The position numbers and the translations under genes are program-made. A model generated the notes under the pieces. The model searched no databases and was not told the origin of the DNA. It was given only the letters and a program-made list of their open reading frames with translations. Below are positions 5,214-30,222 of a stretch of 32,000 nt of DNA, piece after piece (positions within the stretch are counted from its first letter, which is position 1; each line of letters opens with the position of its first letter). Source of the DNA: Candidatus Lokiarchaeum ossiferum (GTDB lineage Archaea > Asgardarchaeota > Lokiarchaeia > Sigyniarchaeales > Promethearchaeaceae); contig CP104013.1 in NCBI GenBank assembly GCA_025839675.1, positions 3,240,001 through 3,272,000 of the forward strand, given 5' to 3'.

Positions 5214-5795
5214 ATGTTTGAAAATATTGAGCATGTAGCAGATACGATTACTGAAAAAGAGCTTAAAAACCTTCTTCTACACAGAAATCGACAGTGGATA
5301 TATAAAAAAGATGGATCTTCTTCGGTGAATGGTTCACTAAAAACTGTGGTACTCTCTTGTATAGATTCGCGAGTTCCAGTGGAAAAAATATTTCAGGCTA
5401 AGCCAGGAGAATTATTGGTTTTAAAAAATGCAGGAAATTTGATGACTGATGACATGTTTCGATCCGCCCTTGTTGCTTCGGTTGAATTAGGTGCAAAATT
5501 TTTCATTGTATTGGGCCATACTCGATGTGGAATGGCCATTAAAAATAATCCTGCAAAAATCGATCACATAGCAACCAAAATAAGTCAAGAGTCGCTTAAC
5601 AAACTCGCTTCGCGGTCAAAAAAGGATGTAATAGAGTGGTTTGGATTCTTCAACCAAAATGAATGGAATGAAAATGCAACAACTCAAGCCGAAAAACTTC
5701 AAAAGCTGCTAGACGAAACAGTTTCAAAAGATTTACAGCCCACAATTCTAAAAGCTATTTATGATTTGGACTCTGGAGAAGTAACTTTCATATAG
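5214..5795 (+). CDS. beta-class carbonic anhydrase-like protein
   Basis: Zinc ligand motifs SCIDSR (CxDxR) and GHTRCG (HxxC), with KPGELLVLKNAGN between them. Confidence 0.75.
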   Translation: MFENIEHVADTITEKELKNLLLHRNRQWIYKKDGSSSVNGSLKTVVLSCIDSRVPVEKIFQAKPGELLVLKNAGNLMTDDMFRSALVASVELGAKFFIVLGHTRCGMAIKNNPAKIDHIATKISQESLNKLASRSKKDVIEWFGFFNQNEWNENATTQAEKLQKLLDETVSKDLQPTILKAIYDLDSGEVTFI

Positions 5796-13322: not shown

Positions 13323-16300
13323 TTATTTTTTTCCATTCAAAATTTTCCAGAGATTTTTATAATCTTCTCCTTTCATTTTACTTTTTTTCTTGGGATCTAT
13401 CCACTTAGAAGATTCTAGATCACTTAACCAATTTACTACCTCGTATGAATTAACATCATATATTTTTTTATTGCTCTTACAATATATTTTACCTATTCTA
13501 TTTGCAATAGTTCGCGGTACATTATTAATTCTCATCAGTATTCCTTCGTCAGTATTCACACCATAGTATATCATTGCTGGTAAATTGCTAAGTTTTCTTT
13601 GCTCATCGATAGACATCAACTGCCTATCTTTATCATTATAGGTTAACTTTTGAATTGAGGATAAACCCCAAGTTGATAAATTAATAATCTTACTATATAT
13701 TACAGAAATACATTTTGTTATTGAATTTATATCTATACCACTGAAATGTAAATTAGAAATCTCATCAATTTTTTTACCACCTACCCAATCATTTATTATA
13801 CTTGCAATATATGAGCCTTGTCGAAACTCATCAGCTTTTATAGAGTTCAAATCTTGACTAATTTCAGGAATTTTATCAATCATTATACCAACCATATCTG
13901 CTAAAACTCCACTCTCACTTGAAAAAATATGACTACTTGTCCAGTCTATCTCCTTTAGGTTTTTATCTTTTACTGATTTTAATGTCTTCTTAATTGTTTC
14001 TGGACAAAAACCTGTTAAATCCGATAATTTTGCTATTCCTTTGTTTTTATCTAATTTCATTACATATTTTTCAACTGCTTCTAATAATACTTCTTTTTTC
14101 TCTTCCTCAAGTTGTCTATATCCATACGTAGAATTTAAAGTAATTTCAAGATTTGAAAGAAAATTGCTTAAAGAATCAGCTTGATTATACATATGGGAAA
14201 TATATTGAGCAAATGTTGACCATTCCGGAAGGTAAGTAAAATCTTGTAATTCTTTGTTTTCGCCTAAAGCAATGAATTCATTTACCATTTTTACCAAAAT
14301 GGATATTATTGCTTTGATGGATTCATGAATAAATTTTGATGCTTTAATTTTCTCCTTATCATTTGTTACTATTATACCGACTGTACCTATAATACTTTGA
14401 TATATTCGACCAACTCTACCAGTTAAATTCATGAAATCTGACGCAGGCATTGTTTTATATGGGTAAGAATAAGATGCCATGATTATGGATGAAACAGGAA
14501 AATTTATTCCTGCTACTATTGTCGTGGTTGATATGAGTATACTCAAATCATTATTTTTCATTAACCATTCCATTAAATATCTTATTTCATCTGGAAGACC
14601 AGCATGATGAATCCCAATCCCTTTTTCAAGAAGTTTTATTAATGGAAATTTTTCACTTATCTCATCACTTATATAGTTCATTACAAGAGATGTGTTCGCG
14701 GAATTTTTTTTCTTTTTAGGTAAAACTTGATAAAGCTCTTCAGCAAGCTTCCATGTACTATCTTTAGTTTTTACCGTAATTATAATATTCTCATTGTTTT
14801 TCTTCTTCTCTATGACTTTCTGAGCGATATATGAACTCAAAATATATTTTGTATTTTTATATTTTGAAAAAGGGTATTTTGAATGAGTTTCTTCACTTAA
14901 TTTTATTTTACTCTTTATTTTTATCTTTTTATCGCTAGTTATTTTTGGTTCAAAATAGCTACTTACATTACGTTTTGATCCTTCAATACTATATAAACCA
15001 ATTATACTCTGATTTGGTTGCCAATCCATTTGAATTTTTATTGAACGAGGGTTTTGTGGATCAAGCCATTCGGCAATCTGATGATTATTTGGGATAAAAG
15101 GTGTTAGAAGTAGAAATCTATTTTTTGGGCAATCCCTCATTATCACAGATAAGAGTAACTCCAAGTTCAGCCCCCTTGTTTCATCTCCAATATTATGAGC
15201 TTCATCGATAATAGTTAATACAAGATTTCTCTGTAGATTTTTCTCAATATCCTGTCTTACCAACAAACTAAATTTTTCTGGGGTTGTCACTAAAATATCA
15301 AAGAAATTTCTTTGATTGATTAAATTATCTTCAAAAGAATCAATTTCCAAAGCCCCACTCATCTTTTCAACCTTTATTGAGAGTGGTTCAATACTTAAAT
15401 CTCGTCTTAAATCATTTGTTACTTGATTAACGAGAGTTCTTGTAGGTACAATATATGCAATCCAGCCCTTTTCTTCCGCAAATTGATTTAAAGCTTGGAG
15501 AATTCTAAACTTCGCAATTAAAGTTTTTCCACTCGAAGTTGGCAGATTAACAACAATTGCTTTGCTAACTGGGTTTAATAGTCCTTGTTCTAATAATGCA
15601 ATTCTCTGAGGATACATGAATTCATAAATTGGTTTAGAGGATTCTGGATTTGTTAGGATATTCGCATATTTTGAAAAACGTGAATTAATTCTATTTGCTG
15701 TATACCAAATTGAATTGAAAATCATTTTTTTATATGTTAAATGGATTAACCTTTGAAGATAATTAAGATCTTGAAGTTGTCCTTTTTCACTATGAATTAG
15801 AGAATTTTTTTTATGAAACTCTAGTGTTTCGATAATATTTGGAGGTTTACCATGTGTCAAATATAAGGAAATTAATTCCGTTGATTTAGCAAGATGATAT
15901 AGTGATGCTAGCTCATGCGCAGATTGGAATTTTTGATTTTCTGGCTTGTTATCAAGATAATTTCTTTCAAACTCGTGTTGATTTTTTCTGAGTTCAACTA
16001 TCATATCAATTGATTTGCTTAAATCTTCCCATGTGTTTTTTTTAATTAAATAAAAAAAAGAATGAAAAATAGTATAAAATAATTTTTTATCCCATTTCTC
16101 CTCTTCATCTAAGTTAAAAATAATTTTTGATTCATTTTTTGTTAGGTATCTTTGAATATCTTCCCATTTTTCCCCTAAATATGCGTATGAGGCAAGTTTA
16201 ATAATAAATTTAATCTTTCTTAATGGTTTTTCTGGTATTGGCAATGTTTCCATTAATTTAAATTGATCAAAACATAATTTGGAGAATTTCTCTTTTTCAA

Positions 16301-16538
16301 CATTTCTCTCATCTTTAGTTTCAAAAGCAAAATTCCAATTTTCTATAATGGCAAATTCATTTATAAAGATTAAGTTCTCAATTGATTTCAATTCTGATAT
16401 GGAAAGTTGTTTTTGTTCATTAAAATTATTGTAAATTTGCTTTTCTTTAATTATCTGGAACATTTTTATTTCTTCAGACTCATTTTTCAAATTTAAAATT
16501 TTAAAATTTTCAGCTTCCATCTGGATTTTCTCCATCAT
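13323..16538 (-). CDS. superfamily-2 DEAH-box helicase, Ski2/Hel308-like core with ~320-aa N-terminal and ~360-aa C-terminal extensions; HamB-like
   Basis: Motif I NLPTSSGKT, Ia IVPTRTL, Ib VTTPEK, II IIDEAHNIGD, HHAGLP, V ISTTTIVAGINFP, VI LTGRVGR. It overlaps the upstream 280-aa gene by 29 nt. Confidence 0.9.
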   Translation of the reverse strand: MMEKIQMEAENFKILNLKNESEEIKMFQIIKEKQIYNNFNEQKQLSISELKSIENLIFINEFAIIENWNFAFETKDERNVEKEKFSKLCFDQFKLMETLPIPEKPLRKIKFIIKLASYAYLGEKWEDIQRYLTKNESKIIFNLDEEEKWDKKLFYTIFHSFFYLIKKNTWEDLSKSIDMIVELRKNQHEFERNYLDNKPENQKFQSAHELASLYHLAKSTELISLYLTHGKPPNIIETLEFHKKNSLIHSEKGQLQDLNYLQRLIHLTYKKMIFNSIWYTANRINSRFSKYANILTNPESSKPIYEFMYPQRIALLEQGLLNPVSKAIVVNLPTSSGKTLIAKFRILQALNQFAEEKGWIAYIVPTRTLVNQVTNDLRRDLSIEPLSIKVEKMSGALEIDSFEDNLINQRNFFDILVTTPEKFSLLVRQDIEKNLQRNLVLTIIDEAHNIGDETRGLNLELLLSVIMRDCPKNRFLLLTPFIPNNHQIAEWLDPQNPRSIKIQMDWQPNQSIIGLYSIEGSKRNVSSYFEPKITSDKKIKIKSKIKLSEETHSKYPFSKYKNTKYILSSYIAQKVIEKKKNNENIIITVKTKDSTWKLAEELYQVLPKKKKNSANTSLVMNYISDEISEKFPLIKLLEKGIGIHHAGLPDEIRYLMEWLMKNNDLSILISTTTIVAGINFPVSSIIMASYSYPYKTMPASDFMNLTGRVGRIYQSIIGTVGIIVTNDKEKIKASKFIHESIKAIISILVKMVNEFIALGENKELQDFTYLPEWSTFAQYISHMYNQADSLSNFLSNLEITLNSTYGYRQLEEEKKEVLLEAVEKYVMKLDKNKGIAKLSDLTGFCPETIKKTLKSVKDKNLKEIDWTSSHIFSSESGVLADMVGIMIDKIPEISQDLNSIKADEFRQGSYIASIINDWVGGKKIDEISNLHFSGIDINSITKCISVIYSKIINLSTWGLSSIQKLTYNDKDRQLMSIDEQRKLSNLPAMIYYGVNTDEGILMRINNVPRTIANRIGKIYCKSNKKIYDVNSYEVVNWLSDLESSKWIDPKKKSKMKGEDYKNLWKILNGKK

Positions 16539-17352
16539 CCATTATTATTTGTTCTAGGCTTTTAATACTAAAAGGCAAGTAACAACCAATTAATTCAAGA
16601 ACCATTTTTTTTTTTATAATGCTATTTAATTTTTTAAATCGTTTTTCCAAATCCATTTTATTTGGATTGACATCTCTTATTAAAATTCCGACTATTTTAT
16701 ATCCACATTTGTCTGTTTCTAAGAAATATTTTAAAGCTCGAAAATAATTTTTTTTTAACTCATTATTAATGTTCAAATTAGTTGTTTTTATCGCTATGGT
16801 TCTAATTAAGTTATTTACAACTTCTTTTTCCTCTATCAAATCTGTAAGCTGACCTTCCAATCCAGATTTTCCATAAACTACATTAGGAGGATATTTATCT
16901 GAAGAAGATGTTTTAACTTCACCAAATAGAAACATAATAGATGATTTACCATGATTATGAAAGCCTACAATATCTGCACCTTGAATATTTGCATTTATAT
17001 TCCTTGCATCATCTATATTGTCATAATAGAACTTGGCATTTCTTTCCTCTTCTAAAAAGCATTTTGCCAATGTTTCACCAATTTTCCAGTCTTTAGGTTT
17101 AAGATTGCTTGTAAATATATCGGAAAGATTATTAACAGAAAAACCTGTTGAATCTAGCCCAAATTCAATCCAATTTTCTTCATGATCTTGTATAATTTCA
17201 TTAGTACTTTCCACCGAAAAATATTTTTCTTTTACGGTTGTTTTAACATAATCTAAAATATCATTCTCTTCAAATTCTACTCCAAAATATAATGAATCAT
17301 TATTCTTTTCTTGATATACAATCTTATAATTATTTAATCCATTAGTTACCAT
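16510..17352 (-). CDS. 280-aa protein with PD-(D/E)xK-type nuclease motif; HamA (DUF1837)-like candidate
   Basis: GETLAKCFLEEE (E93), GADIVGF (D127) and FLFGEVKTS (E145, K147) give the E...D...ExK arrangement of restriction-endonuclease-fold proteins. It is first in the operon and translationally coupled to the helicase. The DUF1837 assignment is not verifiable by eye. Confidence 0.6.
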   Translation of the reverse strand: MVTNGLNNYKIVYQEKNNDSLYFGVEFEENDILDYVKTTVKEKYFSVESTNEIIQDHEENWIEFGLDSTGFSVNNLSDIFTSNLKPKDWKIGETLAKCFLEEERNAKFYYDNIDDARNINANIQGADIVGFHNHGKSSIMFLFGEVKTSSSDKYPPNVVYGKSGLEGQLTDLIEEKEVVNNLIRTIAIKTTNLNINNELKKNYFRALKYFLETDKCGYKIVGILIRDVNPNKMDLEKRFKKLNSIIKKKMVLELIGCYLPFSIKSLEQIIMDDGENPDGS

Positions 17353-17703
17353 AATAATTCCACATTTTTCTGCCTTTTCTAATAAATAATCTTAGAGTTA
17401 TCTTTAATTAAAAGAACTTTTTCGTTTTTAGTAAAAAGATATTTATCTAAACTTTGAGTCAATTTAATATATATTCATATCTTGATACTTATAAACATAC
17501 ATGTAAGTATGAGAATTCAACTTTTTTCTTGAAATACTGTATAATCATTTTTTATTCGGATGATTATCGATTGATTTAAGGATTCTATCTTATGAATTGT
17601 AATTGATCTGAAATTCCTGTTTTATTTTTAAAATTTGATACTAACTTAATTTAAATTTTCTATAAGATGGTAAGGCTCAATTTTGGTTTATTTTAATAAA
17701 TGA

Positions 17704-17910
17704 AAAAAAAATAAGATTTATAGTTTCCTAAATGCTCAATTTAAGAGTTTTAGCGAAGAAAAAACCTATTTGGAACAATTTAAAAAAATATTAGCAATTT
17801 CAAATAAGATCTCTCAAACACAAATAGCAGATATGATGAATATATCTGAAAAACAATTGTTGTCTCTGCTAATGAACTGGAGTGATACCATTTCGTTCAA
17901 AAGTAAGTGA
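17704..17910 (+). pseudogene. start-less fragment encoding a helix-turn-helix/winged-helix-like C-terminus
   Basis: The frame is open from 17704 with no ATG before ...ADMMN. It encodes EEKTYLEQFKKILAISNKISQTQIADMMNISEKQLLSLLMNWSDTISFKSK-stop. The first 39 nt from 17755 are identical to 22255-22293. Confidence 0.5.
17755..17793. repeat. left copy of perfect 39-bp direct repeat
   Basis: gaagaaaaaacctatttggaacaatttaaaaaaatatta is identical to 22255-22293. The flanks on both sides are unrelated. Confidence 0.9.
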
Positions 17911-18009
17911 AAGAAAATTTTTTCAATATATTTTGAAAGGAAGGATGGCAAGATGAATTTCAACTCTCACTTCGAAAATTATTTATAGGTATTCATTAGA
18001 TACTCTCCC

Positions 18010-18879
18010 ATGAAACCCATTAAAAAAATATGGGGAATTGCATTTCTCGTACTGGGGATTGCTTCTGGAATCCCATTGGGAGAGTGCGAGGTAACCGAAG
18101 TTCCTTTGATTGCTGACACATTTATTTCCATATCTAGCTCCTCTGGAACGGATGTTATTGCCAACTATGGCCTTTCCGAATATTTATACATAGGAGATGG
18201 ATTTAACGGAGTGAGTATCACTGCCTTACGCTTTGGTTTTTCAGGCATTAGCACCCAAGATTTGAAGTTCTCTTTTTCTGCGAAGTGCACTGTTTATGGG
18301 GATCATACTCGGAAAGTGAAGGTGTTTCAAATCCAAGATGTGTCTTGGGATGAAATTAATGTTACAGGAATCGAGAACCCTTGGGATCTTGTGGATTTAT
18401 GGACAGCTAATGAAACTCAAGCAAATTTGACCTCACTTGTGGTGGGGGGAAGTACGGATTCTTTAGAATTTAATTTCACCACTGCTTTTCGCGGGGAATT
18501 AACTTTGATCCTCTGCACAGATCCATTAGATACGAGCTGGATCACATTGAATGCTAAGGAGAATGAATATTCTTGGATGTCCCCTGCAAGCATCACCTAT
18601 GAAGCATCGGCATCTACATCAACAACTTCAAGTAGTTCCCCAAATGGTTCTTCAGATGATGATTTCTCCTGGAGTGTTTTATTAGTCCCTGCTGTGATTA
18701 TAGGAGGGGTGGTTCTGATTGTAAAGCTAGGAAAGAAAAAAACTGTTTCTGCCCCGAAGGCGCGCAATTTTCCCTCAAGCCCAACAGCTGCAACCTATTC
18801 AAGTAAGACGTGTATCCATTGCGGGAAATTTCTCGAAGGGACCAGTAGATTTTGTAAATATTGCGGGAAAGAATCTTAA
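18010..18879 (+). CDS. type-I membrane protein: signal peptide, extracellular beta-rich domain (DNRLRE/CBM-like resemblance), S/T linker, TM helix, cytoplasmic zinc ribbon
   Basis: Signal-like IWGIAFLVLGIASGIPLG. ADTFISI...ALRFGF...VKVFQIQDVSWDEINVTGIENPW resembles DNRLRE-type domains. Also seen: SASTSTTSSSSPNGSS linker, TM helix VLLVPAVIIGGVVLIV, and CIHCG...(10)...CKYCG. Confidence 0.7.
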   Translation: MKPIKKIWGIAFLVLGIASGIPLGECEVTEVPLIADTFISISSSSGTDVIANYGLSEYLYIGDGFNGVSITALRFGFSGISTQDLKFSFSAKCTVYGDHTRKVKVFQIQDVSWDEINVTGIENPWDLVDLWTANETQANLTSLVVGGSTDSLEFNFTTAFRGELTLILCTDPLDTSWITLNAKENEYSWMSPASITYEASASTSTTSSSSPNGSSDDDFSWSVLLVPAVIIGGVVLIVKLGKKKTVSAPKARNFPSSPTAATYSSKTCIHCGKFLEGTSRFCKYCGKES

Positions 18880-18974
18880 ACCCCTTTTTTATCAAAAGAA
18901 AAACTTAATCAATTTGCCCAAAAATATCAAAACAAGTACTCAGATAAAAATGCAAATTTAGAGAGTGATAACCT

Positions 18975-20048
18975 ATGAACATCTTCGAACAATATATTCA
19001 GTTTTATACCATGCATCAAACTTGTGAACCCTTGGGATTGAACATTTGTCGCCAGTTCAGTAAATTCAGACCAGAAACCATATATCCGTTTCTAGAAGAC
19101 AGTATCAAATTGTTCATCCAAATGACTCGAGATTCTAAAGAAAATTTGGTCCGATTCCGCAAATTATACAACACGTTTACTAAAAAAAATAAAATTAATG
19201 ATTTAATCTATAATAATGACTTATTACGGGCGATCTCCGAAGACATCAAATATCACCACACTCAAGTGGGCAAGATTCTTAACGCAGATATTGATTTATC
19301 CAAAGAAATGAAATATGTCGGTGTTTCAGATGATGAAATATCGATCAAAGTTAAAAAAATGCAATCCTTAGTAGAAAAAACCATACAAATGGGGAAACAA
19401 GGAGATCAAATCCCTGCAGAACAGAATAAAAAATTCAAGGAATTAGTTTTCGAGGCCCGAGAAGATCCCCTTCATATTGAGAGAGATGTGGATCAGGTTA
19501 TGCAAGACATTAAGAATCGCTATGAAAGTTTTCGGTATATTATTGGTTTTTATTTGGCTGTGTTTGATACCATCGATTCCAAATTCAAAAAAAATATTAA
19601 TAAATGCTATTTCAACCCCAAACTTTCGGGATTTAGTAATATGTATCGGTATCCTGATAAATACAAATATAGTAAGTATAATCCGAGACGTGAATTACCG
19701 TGTTTAAGAACATATTTAAGAAATCCGCATAATCCCTATCCAAATATTGAACAAATTTTCAATTGGGTGTATCACAAGCAAAAAGTCAAGATGTTTCGTT
19801 TAACTGAAGCCCATAATATGCGAGATGTCAAGCAAGATCGATTGGATGAAAAGTTGTATGCAATCTATACTGGAAAAACTTTCAAGTATATTCATTTTGA
19901 GGAGATCTATACCATTCAAAATGATCTGAGCGTGCTTTCTCAACTCATAAATTGGAATATCTTGATGGTGGGGTTGAAAATGAATTTGAGAGCGTTACAT
20001 AAAGCTATTTTTGGGGTTGATGTTTTGAAGAAAGAAAAAAAGGACTAA
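18975..20048 (+). CDS. hypothetical protein (357 aa), family B of this window
   Basis: Long ORF with an ATG start. No recognisable motifs. Its first ~50 nt and upstream leader recur in degraded form at 24270-24345. Confidence 0.65.
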   Translation: MNIFEQYIQFYTMHQTCEPLGLNICRQFSKFRPETIYPFLEDSIKLFIQMTRDSKENLVRFRKLYNTFTKKNKINDLIYNNDLLRAISEDIKYHHTQVGKILNADIDLSKEMKYVGVSDDEISIKVKKMQSLVEKTIQMGKQGDQIPAEQNKKFKELVFEAREDPLHIERDVDQVMQDIKNRYESFRYIIGFYLAVFDTIDSKFKKNINKCYFNPKLSGFSNMYRYPDKYKYSKYNPRRELPCLRTYLRNPHNPYPNIEQIFNWVYHKQKVKMFRLTEAHNMRDVKQDRLDEKLYAIYTGKTFKYIHFEEIYTIQNDLSVLSQLINWNILMVGLKMNLRALHKAIFGVDVLKKEKKD

Positions 20049-20088
20049 ATTCTCTTTGCTATAGTTCATCGGAACCACAATCAATAGT

Positions 20089-20964
20089 TTATTTGATATT
20101 CTTAATGAACGATGAAGAGAAGTCTAAGATTATTCCTATGAGTGCTCCGATAATAAAAACGATGACTTCCAACCAGATTTTCTCCCATAATGATCGTATT
20201 TTTCCTGAGGGATTCACCTTTCGATGAGGCGGGAATTGATCAAAAAAAGGATCTCGGGAATATTTTTTTGGTAAATCATAATCATGGAGAACTTGATTTC
20301 CGAGTGTTTTATCCATGTCAAAACTAAACACACGAGACCGTCTACGGATTCCATGGGCCCCAATATAGATATCCTTCCATTTATCATCTGGTTGCTTCTC
20401 TTCTTTACCCTCTGGTTCAATTTGAACCTGAAGTAAATGCGCAGTTTTTGATATCAGGAACCCTATTTGCTTGAGGTAACCGGAGGGAATTTTAATATAT
20501 GGCGCCCATTTACGATTATTAACATATGGATTTATATCAGCGGCATCGAATCGTGCTTGAATAGTTTTTGGGAGATAGTTGGCTATAAAGAGATCATGCC
20601 CAAATTTTTGCTTCAACCTCCACTCTTTCTTCTTTTTTCGTGGAAACTTTGAAACCATATTCCCTTTTACTTTGGTGCTATCAGCATTAGTGTCAATCAA
20701 TAAAATACGTTTATCAGGCGAATCTGTTGGAAAAAGTGTTTGATCCGATTTGTCGTCCAATTTTATTTGGATATTTGATTTCATATCTTGAATTTCAAAC
20801 TCAGAAAACGATTTAGATTCCTCTTCTGTAATTTGCAGTTTTGATGATTGGGGTATAGTAAATTTTAGTTGGTTATTTTTATCACAAATCTTTAAATCCC
20901 ACTTTGAAAAATTGAAGATCCAAAAATGAGAGGCATTCGTTTTATTTTCGTTTTTTCTTAACAT
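20089..20964 (-). CDS. hypothetical tail-anchored membrane protein (291 aa)
   Basis: Long ORF with a single C-terminal hydrophobic helix (IWLEVIVFIIGALIGIILDF). No recognisable catalytic motif. Confidence 0.65.
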   Translation of the reverse strand: MLRKNENKTNASHFWIFNFSKWDLKICDKNNQLKFTIPQSSKLQITEEESKSFSEFEIQDMKSNIQIKLDDKSDQTLFPTDSPDKRILLIDTNADSTKVKGNMVSKFPRKKKKEWRLKQKFGHDLFIANYLPKTIQARFDAADINPYVNNRKWAPYIKIPSGYLKQIGFLISKTAHLLQVQIEPEGKEEKQPDDKWKDIYIGAHGIRRRSRVFSFDMDKTLGNQVLHDYDLPKKYSRDPFFDQFPPHRKVNPSGKIRSLWEKIWLEVIVFIIGALIGIILDFSSSFIKNIK

Positions 20965-21309
20965 CAGAAAGTCTCCTTGCAGTATAAATTTGGATATTTA
21001 GTTATTTTTGAGATATAGTATTTAAACTTTTATTATTAGGGAGATAAGAAAAGAACTCGGGAGAGGGACCAATATCATTTCTGGCTATAATTTAATAGAC
21101 AAGACACAATGCAAAATGAAATCATGATAGGTTTTAAGGGGTATTACCCCCGTAACATCTGTATTTGCCCTTCATGAGGGCAAACCATATAGACATAAAC
21201 TTTAACCAGCGATATGAGTAAATTTATCATTATACTAAAATTAACATGAGAATTATTCCTATATCTTCATACTCTCTCTAATAATATTTTATCAAAAACT
21301 CCGAATTTT

Positions 21310-21516
21310 TTACTGCTGAATATATCCAATATCATTTTCATTAATTTCTTTATTATACTTGTATTTGGAGTGAACATACCATGATAGTCCCGTTTGAGCG
21401 AGATCCCAAAAAAAAATCTCGCATTAGGCGATACTAAGGCCCAGTATCCCTCATCTGGCCAATTGGCATATATTTTAGCTTCAGTATCAGCATCATTTTT
21501 TTTTCCAAATATTCAT
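21310..21516 (-). pseudogene. small ORF broken twice at 9-nt homopolymer runs
   Basis: Hand translation: MNIWKKK / NDADTEAKIYANWPDEGYWALVSPNARFFF / WDLAQTGLSWYVHSKYKYNKEINENDIGYIQQ-stop. The frame changes at the T9 run (21496-21504) and the A9 run (about 21410-21418) on the plus strand. Confidence 0.3.
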
Positions 21517-21626
21517 TATTCACCTAGAAGAATAGGGCTGTTTACACTTTAAAACGGGAAAGGCTAAAATTTTTTATGGGAAGTAGAAGATAACTTCAAA
21601 AGGAGTTAACCGAGCAAATAGGAAAA

Positions 21627-22247
21627 ATGACAATGGAAAAAAAATTCGGAGAAGTATTCGGGAAATATAGAATTACAGACAAAGAATTTTGGTTTAAAAC
21701 CAATGAGAAGGAATATCGATTTCCCGTAAAGGATGTGAGGATTGAAATTCAAAGACCCAAATATTCAGGACCCTTCTATTTTGTTCAATATAACGACAAA
21801 TCCATTGATTTGGAGGATCTGAGGACTTATTGCTCAGAAATAAACAAAAGTCTTTTGAAATATCATGTATTCATGAAAAAAAAGAAGTATATCCGGATCA
21901 TCAAAGAATTAGTCTCTGAATTAAAAGAAGGGGATGAAGTAAAACTCGAGGAAGCCCTTAGTGTGGTTAAGGAAGAATATAAAATTTTACATGCAAAGGA
22001 GATTCGGGGAGTGTCCAAAAAAGTTTGGTCTAAACATCCTCAACGAACAATCTTAATTCCCGATTCCTTTCTTGAAAATTTCTTTCGTTTAATAGGGGAA
22101 CATATTTCAGGGTTTGAATTCGTGAGGTTGAAAAAAACTATTCGCATGAAGTCTGATATCTCCACTTCCCTCGATCAGATCGATGTGTTATTTGCAGACT
22201 GGGATTCGAATCCCCAAAAATATAAAAAAAGAACACTGGTTGATTGA
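21627..22247 (+). CDS. hypothetical protein, family A (paralogue of 25224..25976)
   Basis: The C-terminal ~110 aa align by eye with the 250-aa paralogue: ELKEGDEVKLEEA / ELMPGDEIPLVQA; SGFEFVRLKKTIR / NGFQYIRLKESIR; LDQIDVLFADWD / LAQLDNLFIEWD. Confidence 0.7.
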   Translation: MTMEKKFGEVFGKYRITDKEFWFKTNEKEYRFPVKDVRIEIQRPKYSGPFYFVQYNDKSIDLEDLRTYCSEINKSLLKYHVFMKKKKYIRIIKELVSELKEGDEVKLEEALSVVKEEYKILHAKEIRGVSKKVWSKHPQRTILIPDSFLENFFRLIGEHISGFEFVRLKKTIRMKSDISTSLDQIDVLFADWDSNPQKYKKRTLVD

Positions 22248-22293
22248 AACGGAAGAAGAAAAAACCTATTTGGAACAATTTAAAAAAATATTA
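22183..22293 (+). pseudogene. 5' part of a small ORF that ends its recognisable sequence at the right 39-bp repeat
   Basis: The frame overlapping the family-A 3' end reads MCYLQTGIRIPKNIKKEHWLIETEEEKTYLEQFKKIL, then diverges. The matching continuation (AISNKISQ...) lies after the left repeat at 17794. Confidence 0.3.
22255..22293. repeat. right copy of perfect 39-bp direct repeat
   Basis: Identical to 17755-17793, with an offset of exactly 4,500 bp. Confidence 0.9.
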
Positions 22294-22376
22294 ATCTCTT
22301 TCTGTTTTTCCCACAATCTCTCTTCTAATTCTTCATATATATCTTTACTCAGTTTTAAGTTCAACTTCTCCGACAC
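22266..22376 (-). pseudogene. short ribbon-helix-helix-like ORF or remnant running into the repeat
   Basis: The GTG-start frame reads VSEKLNLKLSKDIYEELEERLWEKQKEI, a beta-strand plus helix pattern typical of CopG/RHH N-termini. It is followed by NIFLNCSK-stop encoded inside the repeat, which is too short for a complete RHH domain. Confidence 0.25.
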
Positions 22377-22821
22377 ATTCTTGTTGTGCCGAAGGGTTTA
22401 AAAAAAATAAGTAAGTCCCATTATTTATTTTTGATGTAAATAGAAAAGTTCAATATCTAAAGATTAAAGTGAAATTAAGTGAATTAACTTAGCTGAAAAG
22501 TAAACATTAAAATAGGGAGGTTTCCTTATTATTGTTTCGGGTAATTTTAGCATAGTTTTAAATAGGCGTCGTGTTTTTAGTAACTTGTAAAAATGATTTC
22601 TATAGATTATGTCCAAATCACGTAAATTCTGGAAGAGATGTGCCTCATGGGTGAAGGAGAACATCTTTGATTTGATATTTTTATCTCTTGTAATCTACGA
22701 ACTCTTCATTAAGTAGGTTTTCTAAGAGATTAGTCACCCACCATTTTTTTTCTCTTTAGACTAATTTATTGGTCCACCAACATCATTGCTTTTAAATAAT
22801 TATTCTCTCTGGAAGTGTACG

Positions 22822-23130
22822 ATGACTCCTAAAAGAGTGAAAGCTGGTGCTGGTCCTTTTTCCTTTGAATGGGAAAATTGGATGAAAGATGATAATGCAG
22901 ATATCAAACGAATTAAAAGAATCGTTGATTCGTGGATTATCGCAATTGATATGGGTGGAGCAAGTATAACTGATGCAGAAATGACAAGTTTTTTTAAAAT
23001 AATGCGTAGTTATGGACATCTTGTGAAATTGAAGGATGATAAGGATTACTTAGAAAAATACAAAAAACTAAATGATTACTATAAAGAAAATTTCGAGTTC
23101 GGTGCGATTACCGTACGTAGAAGGCGGTAG
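22822..23130 (+). CDS. hypothetical protein (102 aa)
   Basis: ATG at 22822 within track ORF 22786..23130, which has a TTG start. No motif recognised. Confidence 0.4.
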   Translation: MTPKRVKAGAGPFSFEWENWMKDDNADIKRIKRIVDSWIIAIDMGGASITDAEMTSFFKIMRSYGHLVKLKDDKDYLEKYKKLNDYYKENFEFGAITVRRRR

Positions 23131-23286
23131 TTATTTAAGATATTGTTTGTTTCGCCTTCCAGCAATTACTATACCATTTTTACAGTAATTACAAATACAC
23201 TGCTTATGGTATTCATGTCCCACTGTAGTATAACATCCACAGGCATCACATATTACAGGGTCATCATAGTGTTTTTCTTCAATCAT
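23131..23286 (-). CDS. 51-aa cysteine-rich (zinc-ribbon-like) protein, not in the ORF track
   Basis: Hand translation: MIEEKHYDDPVICDACGCYTTVGHEYHKQCICNYCKNGIVIAGRRNKQYLK. It has CxxCxC...CxCxxC spacing. Its stop abuts the stop of the convergent 22822..23130 gene. Confidence 0.45.
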   Translation of the reverse strand: MIEEKHYDDPVICDACGCYTTVGHEYHKQCICNYCKNGIVIAGRRNKQYLK

Positions 23287-23410
23287 ATTTCCATAGGCAA
23301 AGGGGAAAACATATGCAAGGAAATGACAGCGTTTACAGAGGCGTTCAAAATAAATGGAGATTTCATTGTTGTATCAGATATTGAAGAATTTACAAAAAAT
23401 TTAGACTCGA

Positions 23411-23812
23411 TTGAGGAAATTGTTCGATTGGTTTCGAATTGATTCTAAAAGTACTAAAAAAGAAAATGAACATCCAAATGTTGCCAAGATCTTTCAAACT
23501 CCTTCAATCGATCTAAATGTAATTCTTTTCAAGTGGTTCTATTACATGACTCAACATGATTGGAAAAATGTGATTAAATTTTGTAGAAATTTGACATACA
23601 AAAATATTATTCTAAATTTCTTTGAGGGAAATTCACACAATCCAGGGATTGCTACTGGTGCTGATAGAGTTCGGTTTTATTCTGGAACTTTCAATTTTAT
23701 TTGTAACATGAAAAATTCCACAACTTTGCTACCAAATTCTATGGGGAGAGAGATTGACGAGGTGAGAGATATCAAAAGCTTCAATATTGTACTACAAGAA
23801 AAATTAAGTTAA
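23411..23812 (+). CDS. hypothetical protein (133 aa from a TTG start; first ATG much later)
   Basis: Open frame with no motif. A short upstream ORF (23323-23442, MTAFTEAFKINGDF...) overlaps it in another frame, so a frameshifted longer gene is possible. Confidence 0.3.
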   Translation: MRKLFDWFRIDSKSTKKENEHPNVAKIFQTPSIDLNVILFKWFYYMTQHDWKNVIKFCRNLTYKNIILNFFEGNSHNPGIATGADRVRFYSGTFNFICNMKNSTTLLPNSMGREIDEVRDIKSFNIVLQEKLS

Positions 23813-23833
23813 TTTAAGGAAATTTATTCTCCT

Positions 23834-24163
23834 TTGCATCTTGTCGATCTAATTAAAGAAATTGAAGAATTTCGGGACAATTTGATTCTAAATAACTATC
23901 ACTATGCTTTTATACCCGAAAATCGTTCTAAATTAGAAACAATTTGCAAATTAATCGATTTTACATGCGTAATAAAAAAAAATAGAATAAATATTGATCA
24001 AGGAAGAAGTCATATACATATCTCTAGAAATGAATTGAATGAATTTGATCTTCATTTAATTTTCTTTTCAAGAGAAATAAACGTTGTATGTGTGAGAAAA
24101 TTAAATTTAGACACTGGAAACTATTTGATCATAATGCAGCTTCTGCTCCTTCTCAAAAAATAA
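23834..24163 (+). pseudogene. start-less ORF (TTG only), probable 5'-truncated gene remnant
   Basis: 109 codons open, but the only ATG is 8 codons from the end. No motif recognised. Confidence 0.25.
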
Positions 24164-24269
24164 TCGCTTCCTTTTGTAATTTGATGATAAATAAAATCAA
24201 GGAACTTTTTTTTTCTGATTAAGGAAATACAAAATAATAAAGAGCAAAATTATTAATTTAAAATGTCTG

Positions 24270-24345
24270 TAGATAAAAAACGTGATAATTTATGAACATC
24301 TTTGAACAATAAATTCAGTTCTATACTATATTTAACTATGATCAT
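24270..24345 (+). pseudogene. degraded copy of the leader and first codons of the family-B gene (18975..20048)
   Basis: gtgataatttATGaacatctttgaacaataaattcagttctatac compares with gtgataacctATGaacatcttcgaacaatatattcagttttatac. A TAT to TAA change gives a stop at codon 7. Confidence 0.55.
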
Positions 24346-24442
24346 AAGTCTGAATTCATAAACTAGGACATTTTTGGGAGAATTACAAAAAAATTAGCTG
24401 AAATAATCTAAACAAGACAGAACAAGATGAAAAAAGAATTTT

Positions 24443-24661
24443 TTAAAAAGTATTATTATTGACTATCATAAAAAAAATGAAAATGACAATTATTATCACA
24501 CAAATGCTAGTGTATGTCGACTTAATTCCAGGCGAGGATGAATCGTCACTATCTTCATCTGGGCCATGTTCCCAAAAATCAAAAAGATCACCGTCATCAT
24601 GATCAACGTCATTATCAAAACTATCTGGGATACCATCCCCATCTCTGTCCCAACTTGTCAT
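24443..24661 (-). CDS. 72-aa acidic protein with thrombospondin-type-3-like Ca-binding motif and C-terminal TM helix (possible remnant of a surface-protein C-terminus)
   Basis: Seen: DRDGDGIPDSFDNDVDHDDGD, then an acidic linker, then ICVIIIVIFIFFMIV. An in-frame stop lies 10 codons upstream of the ATG. Confidence 0.4.
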   Translation of the reverse strand: MTSWDRDGDGIPDSFDNDVDHDDGDLFDFWEHGPDEDSDDSSSPGIKSTYTSICVIIIVIFIFFMIVNNNTF

Positions 24662-24813
24662 TACTTCTTTCCCTTGTGGTATTTTGATTTAATTAAAATA
24701 TAAATTAGTATTACATTTCAGTATATACTAGGTGGACTAAATGGCCATCGATCAAATCGCTTATTGTGATTTAGATACTTAATATTCCAATTCCTTTTTT
24801 TTAGTCATTATGT

Positions 24814-24912
24814 TTATTCCAAGGAAAAGACCAATGTGGTAGGATGATGAGCCAAAGGTTCCAGTATGGAACAATGCTCAAGGTAGAAGGGGAAATAGGA
24901 GGGATTGGGCAT
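24814..24912 (-). pseudogene. truncated copy (32 codons) of the N-terminal module of the 29494..30222 gene
   Basis: Hand translation MPNPSYFPFYLEHCSILEPLAHHPTTLVFSLE-stop compares with MPPFAEFPFCLENCHVLEPLPHHPKVVDFLRG. It is preceded by the same upstream element. Confidence 0.55.
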
Positions 24913-24937
24913 GAATCACCACTTTATTTTAAAGGAT

Positions 24938-24962
24938 TATAAAAAGATCACCATTGTGACAG
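24938..24962 (-). promoter_or_regulatory. conserved upstream element: TATA-like box plus TCACNATTGTGA palindrome (copy at the truncated module)
   Basis: tataaaaagatcaccattgtgacag matches 30249-30273 at 24 of 25 positions. On the minus strand the TTTTTATA lies about 26 nt upstream of the ATG at 24912. Confidence 0.4.
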
Positions 24963-25223
24963 TTATTCTTCCATTTTGAGATCCTTAAATGAGCAACAGT
25001 TATTCTTCCATTTTGAGCATCATTATATTGAGAGTCAGTTGACTCGTACCATCCCACCTTCGGCTATTTTATCGATCACTTCGCAAGGGATTGAGTTTTT
25101 GCAAATTCATGAAATTAATTTTGATCGAATTAGGGACTTTTTTATCCTAATTGATAAAGAAAAATCTGACTGTCGATTATTAATTCACAACTTTTATTTT
25201 CTTCTTCAACAGAGTTAATTTTC

Positions 25224-25976
25224 ATGGGAAAAAATGCACTCTTTGATGCTCTTCACACCTACTGGAAAACAGAAAGTAAAAAATATAACGGAAATGTACA
25301 AAGTAGGCAAAGTTTTGAAGATTATCAAAAAGAAACTTTTTCTCGAATTTTAGGAGTTAACATGTTGCAAGAAAACATTTTTACGTCCGATGGAGTAAAT
25401 CTTGCATGGGAAAAACGGAGTTCTAAAGAGTTGATGGAATATCAGTATCGATATCAGCCCATCCAAATTAAGAAAGGGCCAAATGTTAAAATATGGCAAG
25501 ACCAACTGACTTTTTCTGGAGAAAGAGGAACTCATACCCATCCTTTACTGGGTTTAAATAAAATCCCCGAGATAATTCAGAATGGTGCATTTGATCGTAT
25601 TCCAGATCATTATATGAAGAAAATTCAAAACTTTCTAACACCCAAATTATTAGCTGCTGAAAAACAAAAACTAATCAAGTTAATAAGTGAATTATTTGGA
25701 GAACTCATGCCGGGCGATGAAATTCCGCTCGTTCAAGCTGAAAAAATCATAAGACAAGAATTTTCATTCAATACTCTGACATCCAAGGATATTCTTGGAT
25801 TTTTAAAAGAAATCGGAACAAAACTCAATGGATTTCAGTATATACGATTGAAAGAATCTATTCGGTATAGCAAAGAAATCCTTCCATTATCAGCCAATCT
25901 TGCTCAATTGGATAATTTGTTCATTGAATGGGATCAAGCAATACAAACTAACAATCACAATAAGAAGAAGAAATAG
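25224..25976 (+). CDS. hypothetical protein, family A (paralogue of 21627..22247)
   Basis: C-terminal domain is shared with the 206-aa paralogue; the N-terminal 130 aa are unrelated. It ends 5 nt before the next ORF. Confidence 0.7.
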   Translation: MGKNALFDALHTYWKTESKKYNGNVQSRQSFEDYQKETFSRILGVNMLQENIFTSDGVNLAWEKRSSKELMEYQYRYQPIQIKKGPNVKIWQDQLTFSGERGTHTHPLLGLNKIPEIIQNGAFDRIPDHYMKKIQNFLTPKLLAAEKQKLIKLISELFGELMPGDEIPLVQAEKIIRQEFSFNTLTSKDILGFLKEIGTKLNGFQYIRLKESIRYSKEILPLSANLAQLDNLFIEWDQAIQTNNHNKKKK

Positions 25977-25981
25977 TTGAA

Positions 25982-26650
25982 TTGGAAACATTCACCCCAA
26001 GTTGGGAAAATTATTACTATCGATTTTTCGATGGCTTAGGATATGATGTTGTTCATGTATATACAGGATATACTCGAAATCAGTTTTATAATGAACTTTA
26101 TCAATGGACACCTCTCATTCAATGGGATGATGAATTGTTTATTATGATCCAAGGGCACGGGCTTGTGATGGATGATGAAGAAGAGACACCTTTACCGTAT
26201 TTTACTCTCTATGATGGAGATACTTTATATAATGGAGATAATGGTGAAATTTCAGGACAAGACTTCATAAATCGATTGATGTTATTTAGTGCTTTGAGGA
26301 AATGTGTATTTTTTGATACTTGCTATGCTGGAAAAGTGTTAGAAAGTTTTAATTCCGAAATTACCAAAGTTTTTCAAACTACTGATGCTACTCATGCAGC
26401 TGTGATGACATGCACTTATTATGATGAAGCAATCGAAAATGCAAAATGGGAGAAAAGAAATACTCGGTTGGCAATTTTTTTTTTCCAAACTTTGAGTGCA
26501 ACAACTTTAAGTGAGGATGGAATCTTCAATTATTTTCAGTTAGAACTAGCTTTAGAATCGTTATTACCATGGAATGATTTTTGTTACCAAGGAGGCACAA
26601 TTCTGAATCCAGGTTGGAATTTTTTGACTAAATATGGAATGTTATCATAA
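25982..26650 (+). CDS. clan-CD cysteine-peptidase-like protein (caspase/legumain/clostripain fold candidate), TTG start, possibly N-terminally truncated
   Basis: A hydrophobic strand plus His-Gly (ELFIMIQGHG, H59) and a hydrophobic strand plus D-x-Cys (KCVFFDTCYAG, C114). The spacing is 55 aa, within the clan-CD range. There is no ATG, and the expected first beta-strand appears to be missing. Confidence 0.5.
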   Translation: METFTPSWENYYYRFFDGLGYDVVHVYTGYTRNQFYNELYQWTPLIQWDDELFIMIQGHGLVMDDEEETPLPYFTLYDGDTLYNGDNGEISGQDFINRLMLFSALRKCVFFDTCYAGKVLESFNSEITKVFQTTDATHAAVMTCTYYDEAIENAKWEKRNTRLAIFFFQTLSATTLSEDGIFNYFQLELALESLLPWNDFCYQGGTILNPGWNFLTKYGMLS

Positions 26651-26678
26651 TATTTGGGATATTAAACAATATTTCCCT

Positions 26679-27307
26679 CTATTTTTTTTTTTTAATAGCA
26701 TTTTTTAATTCCCCAAAGGAGGTTTCTTTTCGCTTGTTATCATACCAACGTAAACTCCCAGTAAATCTTGACCCATGGTACCAAGTATCTAATAACTTTT
26801 TTCCTCCCAGTAAGTGGTCCCATGATTTTAGTATTTTTAATTCTTTTACGGTTCTTTTAGCAATGCATGAGTTACAGAAATAGATAGGAAGCGAAAAATA
26901 AGGGGTGTTTTCCGATGTTTGTTCGTTTACCGTGATAAATGGGTCCATATCAGTATACCATCTATGGCAAAAGTAGCATAGATTTTTGGAAGGTTCCTCA
27001 TTTTTGACCATCAATACTAATAAGATGGGTTGACAATTGAATTTTTTGGAGAATTTAGGATGCTCAAATAGGCATGAACCTAAAAGATGTTGTTCATGAA
27101 ACACCCGTAGTGTTGTTCATCGAGAGCAAACTTCGCCGACGGGACCGAAAGGGTAAAAAGTTCCTGGAATGTGGATGGGAGGACATTCAATCCATGAAGA
27201 AAATCCACGGTGGTCGGATGGTGATCTAAGGATTCCAGCATGTGACAATTCTCGCTGTCCGTTAAATGTTCTGTGGGGCAGGAGCCACCGTGATCTACCT
27301 GTGGCAA
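26679..27307 (-). pseudogene. paralogue of the 29494..30222 N-terminal module joined to a different Cys-rich C-terminus; split into two track ORFs by a 1-nt difference in a G-run
   Basis: ENCHMLESLDHHPTTVDFLHGLNVLPSTFQELFTLSVPSAKFALDEQHYG has 38 of 56 identities to the full copy when the frame is corrected. The minus-strand GGG (plus 27104-27106) corresponds to GGGG in the full copy (30039-30042). Downstream: CYFC...(31)...CNSC. Confidence 0.5.
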
Positions 27308-27653
27308 GCCGATTTCTTCATGTAGTGGTATCCGACGATGCCGATCTTGATCGAAAGAAATCGTTTCCCTATCATCGCATCAAGAGTCCTTCTTCTCTTC
27401 AAGCGAGAAATACTATGAAAGCGGTTTCATTACCCCGATCGACCCTTATTGGTTTTTTTGAATCCGTCCACAATCGATCAATCAAACTTCCGTTTCCCTT
27501 ATCGGTAAGCTATCTTCCGTGATTGCAATAATGCCATCATGGGAGCAGTTTTTTTTATTTTATAATTCAATGTATTTTTTATACAGAAAATTCTGGTTAA
27601 TTGTATTTTTGATTCAGTTAATTTAAATATTTAGTGTATAATATAGTCATAAG

Positions 27654-27685
27654 AAAGGGGTTGAAGGGAATCTCCCCCTTTTTTT
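27654..27685 (+). terminator. stem-loop (AAAGGGG / CCCCTTT) followed by a T7 run
   Basis: A 7-bp stem at 27654-27660 pairs with 27675-27681. The loop is about 14 nt and T-run 27679-27685 partly overlaps the 3' arm. It lies 14 nt upstream of the ATG at 27699. Confidence 0.35.
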
Positions 27686-27698
27686 GAAGGTATACAAA

Positions 27699-28562
27699 AT
27701 GAACGAAAACCGATTGAAAACTAAAAATACAATAACGCCTTTGCTAGGCTTTGTATTTTTATTTCTCCTGCTTGCAGGACAATTTTCCGAAGGAAATGCC
27801 GCCTATCAACCTCCGGTGGAACCTCCTGAAGTAAATTTGAATGCGCCGTCTACCGTCATCGCGGGAACCTCCTTTACTGCCTCTATCTATATCCAAAATT
27901 ATCCCGGAAGCAGTTATGGGTATGTTCAATGTTATGAAAATGGTGTATGGCAAAATGTCAAACGAGTTACGATCTCCTCGTCCCATGTGAGTGTGAGTCT
28001 TCCGACGAGCCCATACTATGAAAGATCAGTTTTATATCGCGTAAGGTATCGGGCTCCTTCTCGTTGGATTTACAGTAATACGGATAGCGTCAAAATTAAT
28101 TTTGGTAGAACAATGTATCTTGAAGGACGAACTTGGGAAAAACAAATTCGTGATCAAAGCGGATTAAATGATTATTATGCGAGTGAATCCCATCACTACA
28201 CTTGGGCTGCAAATACCAATGAAATTTCGGTGAGTACTACTGGGATAAATTATAACAGGTTTATTGGAATGTCCACAACTTTTGTCGCTCAAAGCACGAG
28301 TATTCGAATTGACTTCGATTCCAAAGAATCGACGAACAAATATAGCGGAGTAGGCCAATATTCAATTATTTATGATCTCGATTGGGAAGTTGTTGGTTGG
28401 CTCTACTTTAGCGATTCCACTTCCTATACTCATCACACTCACTTGTTTACAGAATTAGATGTAGGACAATCCTACTACTATTTTCATGCAAGTCGCGATA
28501 ATTCCGTTTATCAAGGGTTCACAATTACTTCCAAGAATTTTGTGTTGGATTTAACCCCTTAA
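27699..28562 (+). CDS. secreted/anchored protein, tandem paralogue 1 (Ig-like CARDB-type N-domain plus beta-rich C-domain)
   Basis: Signal/anchor LLGFVFLFLLLAG, then AAYQPPVEPPEVNLNAPSTVIAGTSFTASIYIQNYPGSSYG. About 50% identical by eye to the next gene. GAAGG lies 8 nt upstream of the ATG. Confidence 0.8.
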   Translation: MNENRLKTKNTITPLLGFVFLFLLLAGQFSEGNAAYQPPVEPPEVNLNAPSTVIAGTSFTASIYIQNYPGSSYGYVQCYENGVWQNVKRVTISSSHVSVSLPTSPYYERSVLYRVRYRAPSRWIYSNTDSVKINFGRTMYLEGRTWEKQIRDQSGLNDYYASESHHYTWAANTNEISVSTTGINYNRFIGMSTTFVAQSTSIRIDFDSKESTNKYSGVGQYSIIYDLDWEVVGWLYFSDSTSYTHHTHLFTELDVGQSYYYFHASRDNSVYQGFTITSKNFVLDLTP

Positions 28563-28581
28563 ATAATTGGAGGAACAAACA

Positions 28582-29469: not shown

Positions 29470-29493
29470 GAGAAATTCTTACTTTCCCTTTTT

Positions 29494-30222
29494 TTAATAA
29501 TTTTCGACCATGCGTTCCCACTTCGTTTTCCTAGGATATTTGGATTGTATTAGAGTCTTTTGGCGCGCTTTTCGTTTCCGACGTGCCTTTCCACTTTCAA
29601 AACGACCAAAATCTTCCACAAACACGGCGATGTCCGTTTCCTTTACCTGATAGGAAGGAGTTTTAAGCGAGGACGGAAGAGCCGATCGATCAAATTTCCG
29701 ATGATAGACCCGCCCCATCTCCTCTAAAATATTCGCTGAGAGAATGAAGGTCACACTCGGATTGGATGTAAACATCTGTCGAATCCGCTCCCGTTGTGAT
29801 CGCTGGTGATCACAAAAATGCAGCAGGATATTGGAATCGATCAAAACCATTGCATCCGCGGGTAAGTTGGCAATGTCTTCGGGCCAATAGGCTTCATAGT
29901 CCAAAAATTCCCGGAGGTTGATCAACAGATGATGATCCAAAGACGCCACCCCCCATTGGTTTTCGGCGGCCAGATAGGCCACGATCCAATCATCCACCCC
30001 AAAGGCCAAGGGACGATAAGGATGTTGTTCTTGAATAACCCCGTAATGTTGCTCATAGAGGGCTAACTTTGCGGCAGGCACCGAGAGCGTATAGAGGTCA
30101 GGAAGAATTCGTGGAGGTACATTTAAACCTCGGAGAAAATCTACAACCTTCGGATGATGGGGGAGAGGCTCCAACACATGACAATTTTCGAGACAGAAGG
30201 GAAACTCGGCAAAGGGGGGCAT
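29494..30222 (-). CDS. 242-aa protein: conserved N-terminal module plus PIN-like C-terminal domain; GC-rich
   Basis: AMVLIDSNILLHF is a PIN-type first acidic motif, ILEEMGR lies about 40 aa later, and the tail is basic. The N-terminal 60 aa recur at 27082-27253 and 24814-24912. Hand-counted lines give 47-62% G+C. Confidence 0.65.
   Translation of the reverse strand: MPPFAEFPFCLENCHVLEPLPHHPKVVDFLRGLNVPPRILPDLYTLSVPAAKLALYEQHYGVIQEQHPYRPLAFGVDDWIVAYLAAENQWGVASLDHHLLINLREFLDYEAYWPEDIANLPADAMVLIDSNILLHFCDHQRSQRERIRQMFTSNPSVTFILSANILEEMGRVYHRKFDRSALPSSLKTPSYQVKETDIAVFVEDFGRFESGKARRKRKARQKTLIQSKYPRKTKWERMVENY

Follow-up and report, generated by a model that had tools for sequence, protein, structure and literature searches.

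A probable Hachiman-type antiviral operon of the divergent PDC-M23 clade in the Asgard archaeon Candidatus Lokiarchaeum ossiferum

A stretch of 32,000 nucleotides (nt) from the genome of Candidatus Lokiarchaeum ossiferum B35, a cultured Asgard archaeon, was analyzed (contig CP104013.1, positions 3,240,001 to 3,272,000; hereafter the window, whose own numbering is used throughout). It contains a two-gene cassette on the minus strand, in which the gene of a predicted nuclease (gene A) precedes that of a large helicase (gene B). Gene A (NEF87_002761, 16510..17352) encodes a HamA-like PD-(D/E)xK nuclease of 280 amino acids (aa), which falls into the PADLOC family PDC-M23A. Gene B (NEF87_002760, 13323..16538) encodes, from its longest start, a HamB-like protein of 1071 aa, a Ski2/Hel308-type helicase of superfamily 2 (SF2) assigned to PDC-M23B. 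The two open reading frames (ORFs) overlap by 29 nt, and their coordinates and sizes were exactly those of an earlier interpretation made from the DNA letters without database searches (the sequence-only reading), which had proposed a Hachiman-like defence pair, possibly a divergent one. The start of gene B differs between records: the GenBank product begins at M7, giving 1065 aa and an 11-nt overlap with gene A, and the RefSeq product has 1022 aa. Since homologues from several loci align from residues 3-9 of the 1071-aa form, the long N-terminus is probably real, and for the same reason the RefSeq model probably trims conserved N-terminal residues.

The PD-(D/E)xK arrangement that the sequence-only reading had recognized in protein A was found to be complete. 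The motif GETLAKCF begins at residue 92 and contains E93, the helix glutamate of the nuclease core (codon 17074..17076, minus strand); GADIVGF begins at residue 125 and contains D127, the first catalytic aspartate (16972..16974, minus strand); FLFGEVKTS begins at residue 141 and contains E145-V-K147, the (D/E)xK motif itself (16912..16920, minus strand). In an alignment of 62 relatives, the invariant residues were G92, E93, D115, G125, D127, G144, E145, K147, T148, S149, P155 and P156. Judging from this alignment, chance does not account for the motif, because E93, D127, E145 and K147 are all invariant in the 62 family members. The AlphaFold (AF2) model of protein A, with a predicted local distance difference test (pLDDT) score of 90.7 and a predicted template modelling (pTM) score of 0.88, placed the active-site residues on the expected helix and strands, with D127 at the start of a predicted strand spanning residues 128-134, and the predicted nuclease site is intact. 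The family is sizeable: about 80 relatives, the best of them 37-40% identical, were recovered in a word-indexed search, and an exhaustive profile search returned 642 clusters (50% identity) at an expectation value (E) of 1e-3 or less.

All the helicase motifs noted from the sequence of protein B were likewise present. PTSSGKT (motif I) begins at residue 333 (15522-15542), DEAH at 445 (15195-15206), HHAGLP at 644 (14592-14609) and GRVGR at 707 (14406-14420), all on the minus strand; motifs I, II (DEAH) and VI are all represented, and Pfam recognized DEAD, ResIII and Helicase_C domains. The structure predicted for protein B (pLDDT 85.4, pTM 0.85) is helical over residues 1-300 or so, contains a RecA1/RecA2 core over about residues 305-725 and ends in a helical C-terminus, in agreement with the helical N-terminal extension and the C-terminal region that had been proposed. 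The N-terminal alpha-helical bundle (residues 1-300, 15639..16538, minus strand) would be the counterpart of the NAH domain, a HamB-specific N-terminal domain which binds and restrains HamA (PMC12278908). A similar function of the bundle in protein B is suggested by this correspondence. The RecA1/RecA2 core (residues 305-725, 14364..15626, minus strand) contains these motifs, and over residues 301-720 protein B shares 26% identity (E 7e-41) with a HamB annotated in Cytobacillus. The all-helical remainder (residues 726-1071 and the stop codon, 13323..14363, minus strand) is likely to correspond to the winged-helix-like and C-terminal helical regions in HamB.

The resemblance of protein B to HamB extends over its full length. 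In a Foldseek search the top match was HamB (8vx9_B; E 7.5e-27, TM-scores 0.74/0.68, 1175 aligned columns), the partner chain of the very structure, 8vx9_A, that was matched by protein A. Hel308, Hjm, Pol-theta and Brr2 ranked lower and aligned with the core only, with a query TM-score (TMq) of about 0.45; the N-terminal bundle lay inside the HamB alignment and outside the matches to Hel308, Pol-theta and Brr2. More than 20 PADLOC HamB models matched protein B, the best being HamB1 (E 2.1e-63 over residues 187-998). Hel308/Hjm, ASCC3, Slh1, Brr2 and the Pol-theta helicase share the core motifs of Ski2-like SF2 helicases with protein B; unlike it, Hel308/Hjm and the eukaryotic Ski2-like helicases are devoid of the HamA-binding bundle, cover less than half of protein B and have no paired nuclease gene. 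Assignment of protein B as a Hel308 equivalog was rejected, with 111 bits on the NCBIfam model NF040935 against a cut-off of 1200, and 127 bits on PRK02362 against 887. A special link between this Asgard protein and eukaryotes was also considered. With phmmer, ASCC3 (E 2.5e-42), Slh1 and Brr2 outscored HamB, and Hel308 reached about 1e-23; the high scores of the eukaryotic helicases arise because three or four stretches are matched within proteins of 1,700-2,100 aa, together with the conservation of the core. The link was rejected, the structural ranking putting HamB first. A Pfam match to DUF5601 within the helices of the C-terminal region (residues 776-828, E 2.9e-6, 27.7 bits for a cut-off of 23) may be a helical-repeat artefact and was treated as uninformative.

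To relate protein A to HamA, both its predicted fold and its family profile were used. The sole significant match of the model among solved structures was HamA (8vx9_A; E 5.9e-6, probability 1.0), aligned over the full length at 12% identity with TM-scores of 0.52/0.55, whereas generic restriction endonucleases gave E values above 0.1. A canonical HamA alignment of 50 sequences was built from a seed, the HamA-HamB pair annotated by PGAP on a Cytobacillus firmus plasmid; E89, G121, D123, E142 and K144 are invariant in this alignment. When the A family was compared with it by hhalign (E 9.4e-4 over 103 columns), E93, D127, E145 and K147 fell exactly opposite E89, D123, E142 and K144 of HamA. E. 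coli HamA requires the residues equivalent to the E/K pair of protein A both to defend the cell and to act as a nuclease; they are numbered E138/K140 in one study (PMC12278908) and E150/K152 in another (PMC11914072). The Pfam HamA model PF08878.16 weakly matched 10 of the 62 family members (best E 6.6e-5), and these ten matched no other nuclease family. The precomputed annotation of protein A lists PF08878.17, its UniProt name is 'Anti-bacteriophage protein A/HamA C-terminal domain-containing protein', and the PADLOC HamA1 model gave a weak match (E 0.027) over residues 74-149, the region spanning E93 to K147. Our reading of these profile and fold comparisons is that protein A would be a true, strongly diverged HamA homologue, lying at or just past the edge of the Pfam model.

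When the window was run through PADLOC, both proteins matched a catalogued pair end to end. Protein A matched PDLC04527 (PDC-M23A; E 5.3e-70, residues 9-272 on positions 6-260 of a profile of 263), and protein B matched PDLC04531 (PDC-M23B; 1167 bits, residues 19-1069 on positions 12-1059 of 1060). The L. ossiferum pair shows no structural difference from PDC-M23 and stands as an Asgard member of it at 37-49% identity to its nearest relatives. Homologous PDC-M23 operons often lie beside or inside type I restriction-modification (RM) loci, and the PDC families were themselves recognized by their location inside BREX, DISARM or type I RM loci (Payne et al., bioRxiv 10.1101/2024.01.29.577857). 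No mention of PDC-M23 was found in the literature searched. The fallback offered by the sequence-only reading, that of an undescribed nuclease-helicase pairing, is not supported, the pair being already present in PADLOC-DB v2 and protein A already bearing a HamA-related name in UniProt. The pair is thus an archaeal addition to the known Hachiman kind, catalogued as PDC-M23, and not a new kind of system.

The distribution of the family was then studied by scanning one genome per species (about 185,600 genomes), locus details being taken from the best 80 of the 439 genomes with a match. Relatives of gene A were thus present in about 0.24% of the species genomes, across many bacterial and archaeal phyla. 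Among the best 80, the bacterial hosts included Desulfobacterales, Bacillota, Bacteroidota, Planctomycetota, Verrucomicrobiota and Pseudomonadota, among others, and the archaeal hosts Woesearchaeota, Aenigmatarchaeota, Nitrosopumilaceae, ANME-1, Methanomicrobiales and Methanosarcinales; no Asgard host was found among these 80 loci. The source genome is itself missing from them, although an identical sequence should head the ranking; the collection either has the stretch masked or represents the species by a strain devoid of the cassette. The two genes are tightly associated: 77 of the 80 loci have gene B immediately behind gene A in the same orientation, and two of the three exceptions are at contig ends. 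Flanking genes (136 ORFs around about 45 operons) comprised 12-13 type I specificity subunits (HsdS) and 10-12 type I methyltransferases (HsdM), together with HsdR N-termini, Eco57I, RhuM, one SIR2/ThsA-like gene, AbiEii-like and Schlafen/AlbA_2 genes, integrases and an IS66 transposase. Judged by gene content, such surroundings bear the hallmarks of defence islands and mobile DNA. Searching plasmid and phage collections with protein A (tblastn) gave no match, and IMG/VR gave one, so that carriage of the family on plasmids or phages is not supported by these searches.

Taken together, these results lead us to consider it probable that the cassette is a Hachiman-type antiviral operon, similar to type I-A and belonging to the divergent clade PDC-M23, with a mechanism like that of HamAB and a probable origin by horizontal acquisition. 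The Hachiman-like, possibly divergent pair of the sequence-only reading is in this respect well sustained: protein B is HamB-like by sequence and by full-length structure, and the resemblance of protein A to HamA was found both in its only solved-structure match and in a profile alignment that brings the catalytic residues into register. Hachiman type I-A, in which HamA is a stand-alone active nuclease with a DUF1837 domain only and is paired with HamB (E. coli ECOR31 and DEC14B; PDB 8vx9), shares with the L. ossiferum pair the gene order, with the nuclease first and the Ski2-like helicase second; a nuclease of some 260-280 aa whose E...D...ExK residues occupy equivalent positions; a helicase in which a helical bundle at the N-terminus is followed by a RecA1/RecA2 core and by a helical region at the C-terminus; and the fact that the best solved-structure matches of proteins A and B are the two HamAB subunits. 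It differs from the pair in several respects. The identity between protein A and HamA is about 12% only, and protein A stays under the Pfam HamA threshold; protein B is shorter than ECOR31 HamB by about 100 aa and aligns with it structurally at 16% identity; the motif II of protein B reads DEAH, as opposed to the DEGH reported for ECOR31 HamB (PMC12278908); and the host is an Asgard archaeon instead of E. coli.

Several results weigh against this interpretation. Pfam and NCBIfam searches gave no match for protein A, and Pfam PF08878.16 (HamA/DUF1837) in particular gave nothing at E values up to 1. On membership of DUF1837, about which the sequence-only reading had been unsure, the results point both ways, the Pfam score on one side, and on the other the PF08878.17 annotation, the fold match and the in-register profile match to HamA. 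Even the best score of the A family on PF08878.16 (23.3 bits) was below the curated cut-off of 25. Searches of PDB sequences with phmmer and with the hidden Markov model (HMM) of the A family returned no HamA, only noise; the TM-score against HamA is modest (about 0.52-0.55), and the hhalign probability was 22% only. The A family also showed no detectable relation to AbpA by hhalign (probability 0.4%). On the side of the helicase, no beta strands are present in the model of protein B after residue 723 according to DSSP, and the C-terminal barrel of E. coli HamB, which resembles an oligonucleotide/oligosaccharide-binding (OB) fold, is not evident there; because of this, the DNA handling by protein B may differ from that of E. 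coli HamB. The 145 PDC families are 'phage defence candidates' that their authors called untested and that were nominated by 'guilt-by-embedding' (10.1101/2024.01.29.577857). In the window no other recognisable defence gene was found, nor any tRNA, integrase, insertion scars or att-like repeats to mark the borders of an island, only short chance-like repeats. Finally, the locus is mentioned neither in the text nor in the available supplementary files of a 2026 preprint comparing L. ossiferum B35 with B36, which gives the B35 defences as pVip, RM/DrmD, two Pycsar systems, Gabija, RM type IIG and Prometheus.

Part of this evidence would be expected if PDC-M23 were an independent nuclease-helicase defence system, whose helicase is kin to HamB and whose nuclease was separately recruited from the PD-(D/E)xK superfamily, with a different trigger or output. 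The sub-threshold Pfam score, the failure of the family HMM to retrieve HamA from PDB sequences, the low hhalign probability and the barrel not evident in protein B all fit such a system, and the PADLOC curators list PDC-M23 apart from Hachiman. We nevertheless hold this to be distinctly unlikely, since HamA is the sole significant fold match of protein A and is matched over the whole length, beyond the generic PD-(D/E)xK core, with all four invariant residues in register; the ten family members that Pfam does recognize match HamA and no other nuclease family; and protein B appears, from its model, to possess the HamB-specific N-terminal bundle that binds HamA. Another Hachiman type is AbpAB, or type I-B (E. 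coli K-12 YfjL-YfjK; PDB 8zue). It resembles the pair in being a nuclease and Ski2-like helicase operon; in AbpA, however, a Cap4 nuclease forms the N-terminus and the DUF1837 domain is catalytically dead (PMC11914072), whereas protein A has 280 aa, no extra domain and an intact ExK. Protein B matched AbpB in RecA2 only (E 5e-8). Placement of the pair on the AbpAB branch was rejected, the A family being devoid of detectable similarity to AbpA.

Two further loci came to light beside the PDC-M23 family. On the Rhizobium etli plasmid pRetMIM1e (NC_021909.1, 595502-599474), just downstream of ThiF-family and MPN/JAB genes, the gene of a 284-aa hypothetical protein overlaps that of a 1041-aa helicase which is similar to protein B over 90% of its length at 24% identity. 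The 284-aa protein has no detectable relation to the A family, yet it carries 'QVKGTDDERRPPGE', reminiscent of the 'GEVKTSS..PP' of protein A, and from these sequences the pair may represent another Hachiman-like branch. On plasmid pn3 of Nostoc sp. UHCC 0926 (NZ_CP117771.1, 43942-48171), a single ORF of 1409 aa annotated 'HamA' includes a region matching the helicase core of protein B, which suggests a fused HamA-HamB protein.

The cassette differs in composition from the rest of the window. GC content is 26.7% in gene A and 28.3% in gene B, compared with 36.2 ± 4.6% for the other 26 ORFs, and GC content at third codon positions (GC3) is 16.4% and 21.0%, compared with 30.4 ± 6.0%. The low GC content that the sequence-only reading had estimated by hand from a few lines is a real skew, though of about 1.6-2.3 standard deviations only. 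The nearest relatives of the pair are 37-49% identical and belong to unrelated lineages, and no named one is Asgard. On the strength of this AT-rich composition and of the distant relatives (at most 49% identical) in unrelated lineages, the L. ossiferum lineage probably gained the cassette by horizontal transfer.

The same cassette could be imagined as a housekeeping module for DNA repair or recombination, made of a Hel308-like helicase and a partner nuclease and having no role in defence. Protein B does resemble Hel308, Pol-theta and Brr2, and HamB itself responds to DNA damage (PMC12278908). The cassette also adjoins housekeeping genes, no other defence gene being found nearby in the window. 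To the left lie genes for a NUDIX protein, a beta-CASP nuclease, a nucleoside phosphorylase and a phosphoribosyltransferase, an ABC transporter operon, a PhoU-like gene and, at 5214-5795, a beta-carbonic anhydrase; the carbonic anhydrase and permease genes named in the sequence-only reading were confirmed on this side. A housekeeping role is nonetheless very hard to reconcile with a score of 111 bits on a Hel308 model that demands 1200, with the patchy occurrence of the family in about 0.24% of species genomes from unrelated phyla, with nearest relatives that reach no more than 49% identity and include no named Asgard, with the RM, defence or mobile genes that flank homologues elsewhere, and with a composition unlike that of the neighbours in the window; we regard it as highly improbable.

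A low GC3 of 16-21%, well under that of the neighbours, could also mark an inactive relic of horizontal transfer that has lost its expression or function in L. ossiferum, and the pair is absent from the published B35 defence and proteome discussion. Here too the chances appear very slight, since both ORFs are full length by comparison with the family profiles, protein A keeps every invariant residue of its family and protein B its helicase motifs, and the overlapping operon structure has been retained.

For a Hachiman-type operon, a mechanism can be modelled by homology on E. coli HamAB (PMC12278908, PMC11914072). Protein B would bind protein A through its N-terminal helical bundle and hold it inactive while the complex surveys intact double-stranded DNA. 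A free or damaged DNA end, arising for example from viral replication, would enter the helicase, and ATP hydrolysis would ratchet the RecA domains and the helical bundle of protein B. This movement would activate protein A, with metal-dependent DNA cleavage by way of E93, D127, E145 and K147. The activated nuclease would degrade viral and host DNA indiscriminately, with an outcome similar to abortive infection. It is by this analogy that we infer the existence of the A-B complex, its trigger, its substrate and its activity in Lokiarchaeum.

Upstream of gene A, a spacer of 657 nt (17353..18009, unstranded) with 23.7% GC presumably contains the promoter of the A-B operon. No Rfam family and no tRNA were found in this spacer; a sigma-70 promoter scan remained at background level and revealed no terminators, the sigma-70 model being not applicable to archaea. 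Within this AT-rich DNA and divergent from gene A, an ORF of 46 aa (MEQFKKILAISNKISQTQIADMMNISEKQLLSLLMNWSDTISFKSK, 17770-17910, plus strand) has a helix-turn-helix-like stretch and may encode a small regulator or be what is left of a gene. The DNA to the right of the cassette (18010-30222, about 12 kb) contains 13 or more ORFs, mostly ORFans. The first of them (18010-18879) encodes a putative membrane protein with a C-terminal zinc ribbon and weak Pfam matches that are all sub-threshold; the remaining ones gave nothing in Pfam, PADLOC or PHROGs, and these searches did not show the block to be a provirus or an island. GC content falls to 26% around 23500-24500, and the block may be lineage-specific or mobile. 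The PhoU-like gene that flanks the cassette has metagenomic matches of 27-33% identity, none of them close.

According to an earlier report, the genomes of Asgard archaea are enriched in Hachiman (PMC11291487), and the L. ossiferum operon would add an overlooked Hachiman-type system to the defences of one of very few cultured Asgard archaea. It would also tie the candidate family PDC-M23 to a mechanistically understood family, which leads to specific testable predictions. A bolder proposal, which we consider rather unlikely, is that PDC-M23 represents a separate Hachiman type of deep branching, with a HamA-like nuclease past the reach of Pfam and a helicase seemingly devoid of the OB-like barrel, and that it might for this reason differ from E. 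coli HamAB in its nucleic-acid cue or regulation. The L. ossiferum copy would then be an active antiviral system acquired across domains, operating on an archaeal genome and missed by the current inventories of strain B35. The pair reveals no new principle. It illustrates how far HamA may diverge, to about 12% identity and below the Pfam threshold, with its catalytic geometry and its partner kept, and such divergence matters wherever Hachiman systems are counted by HMM thresholds.

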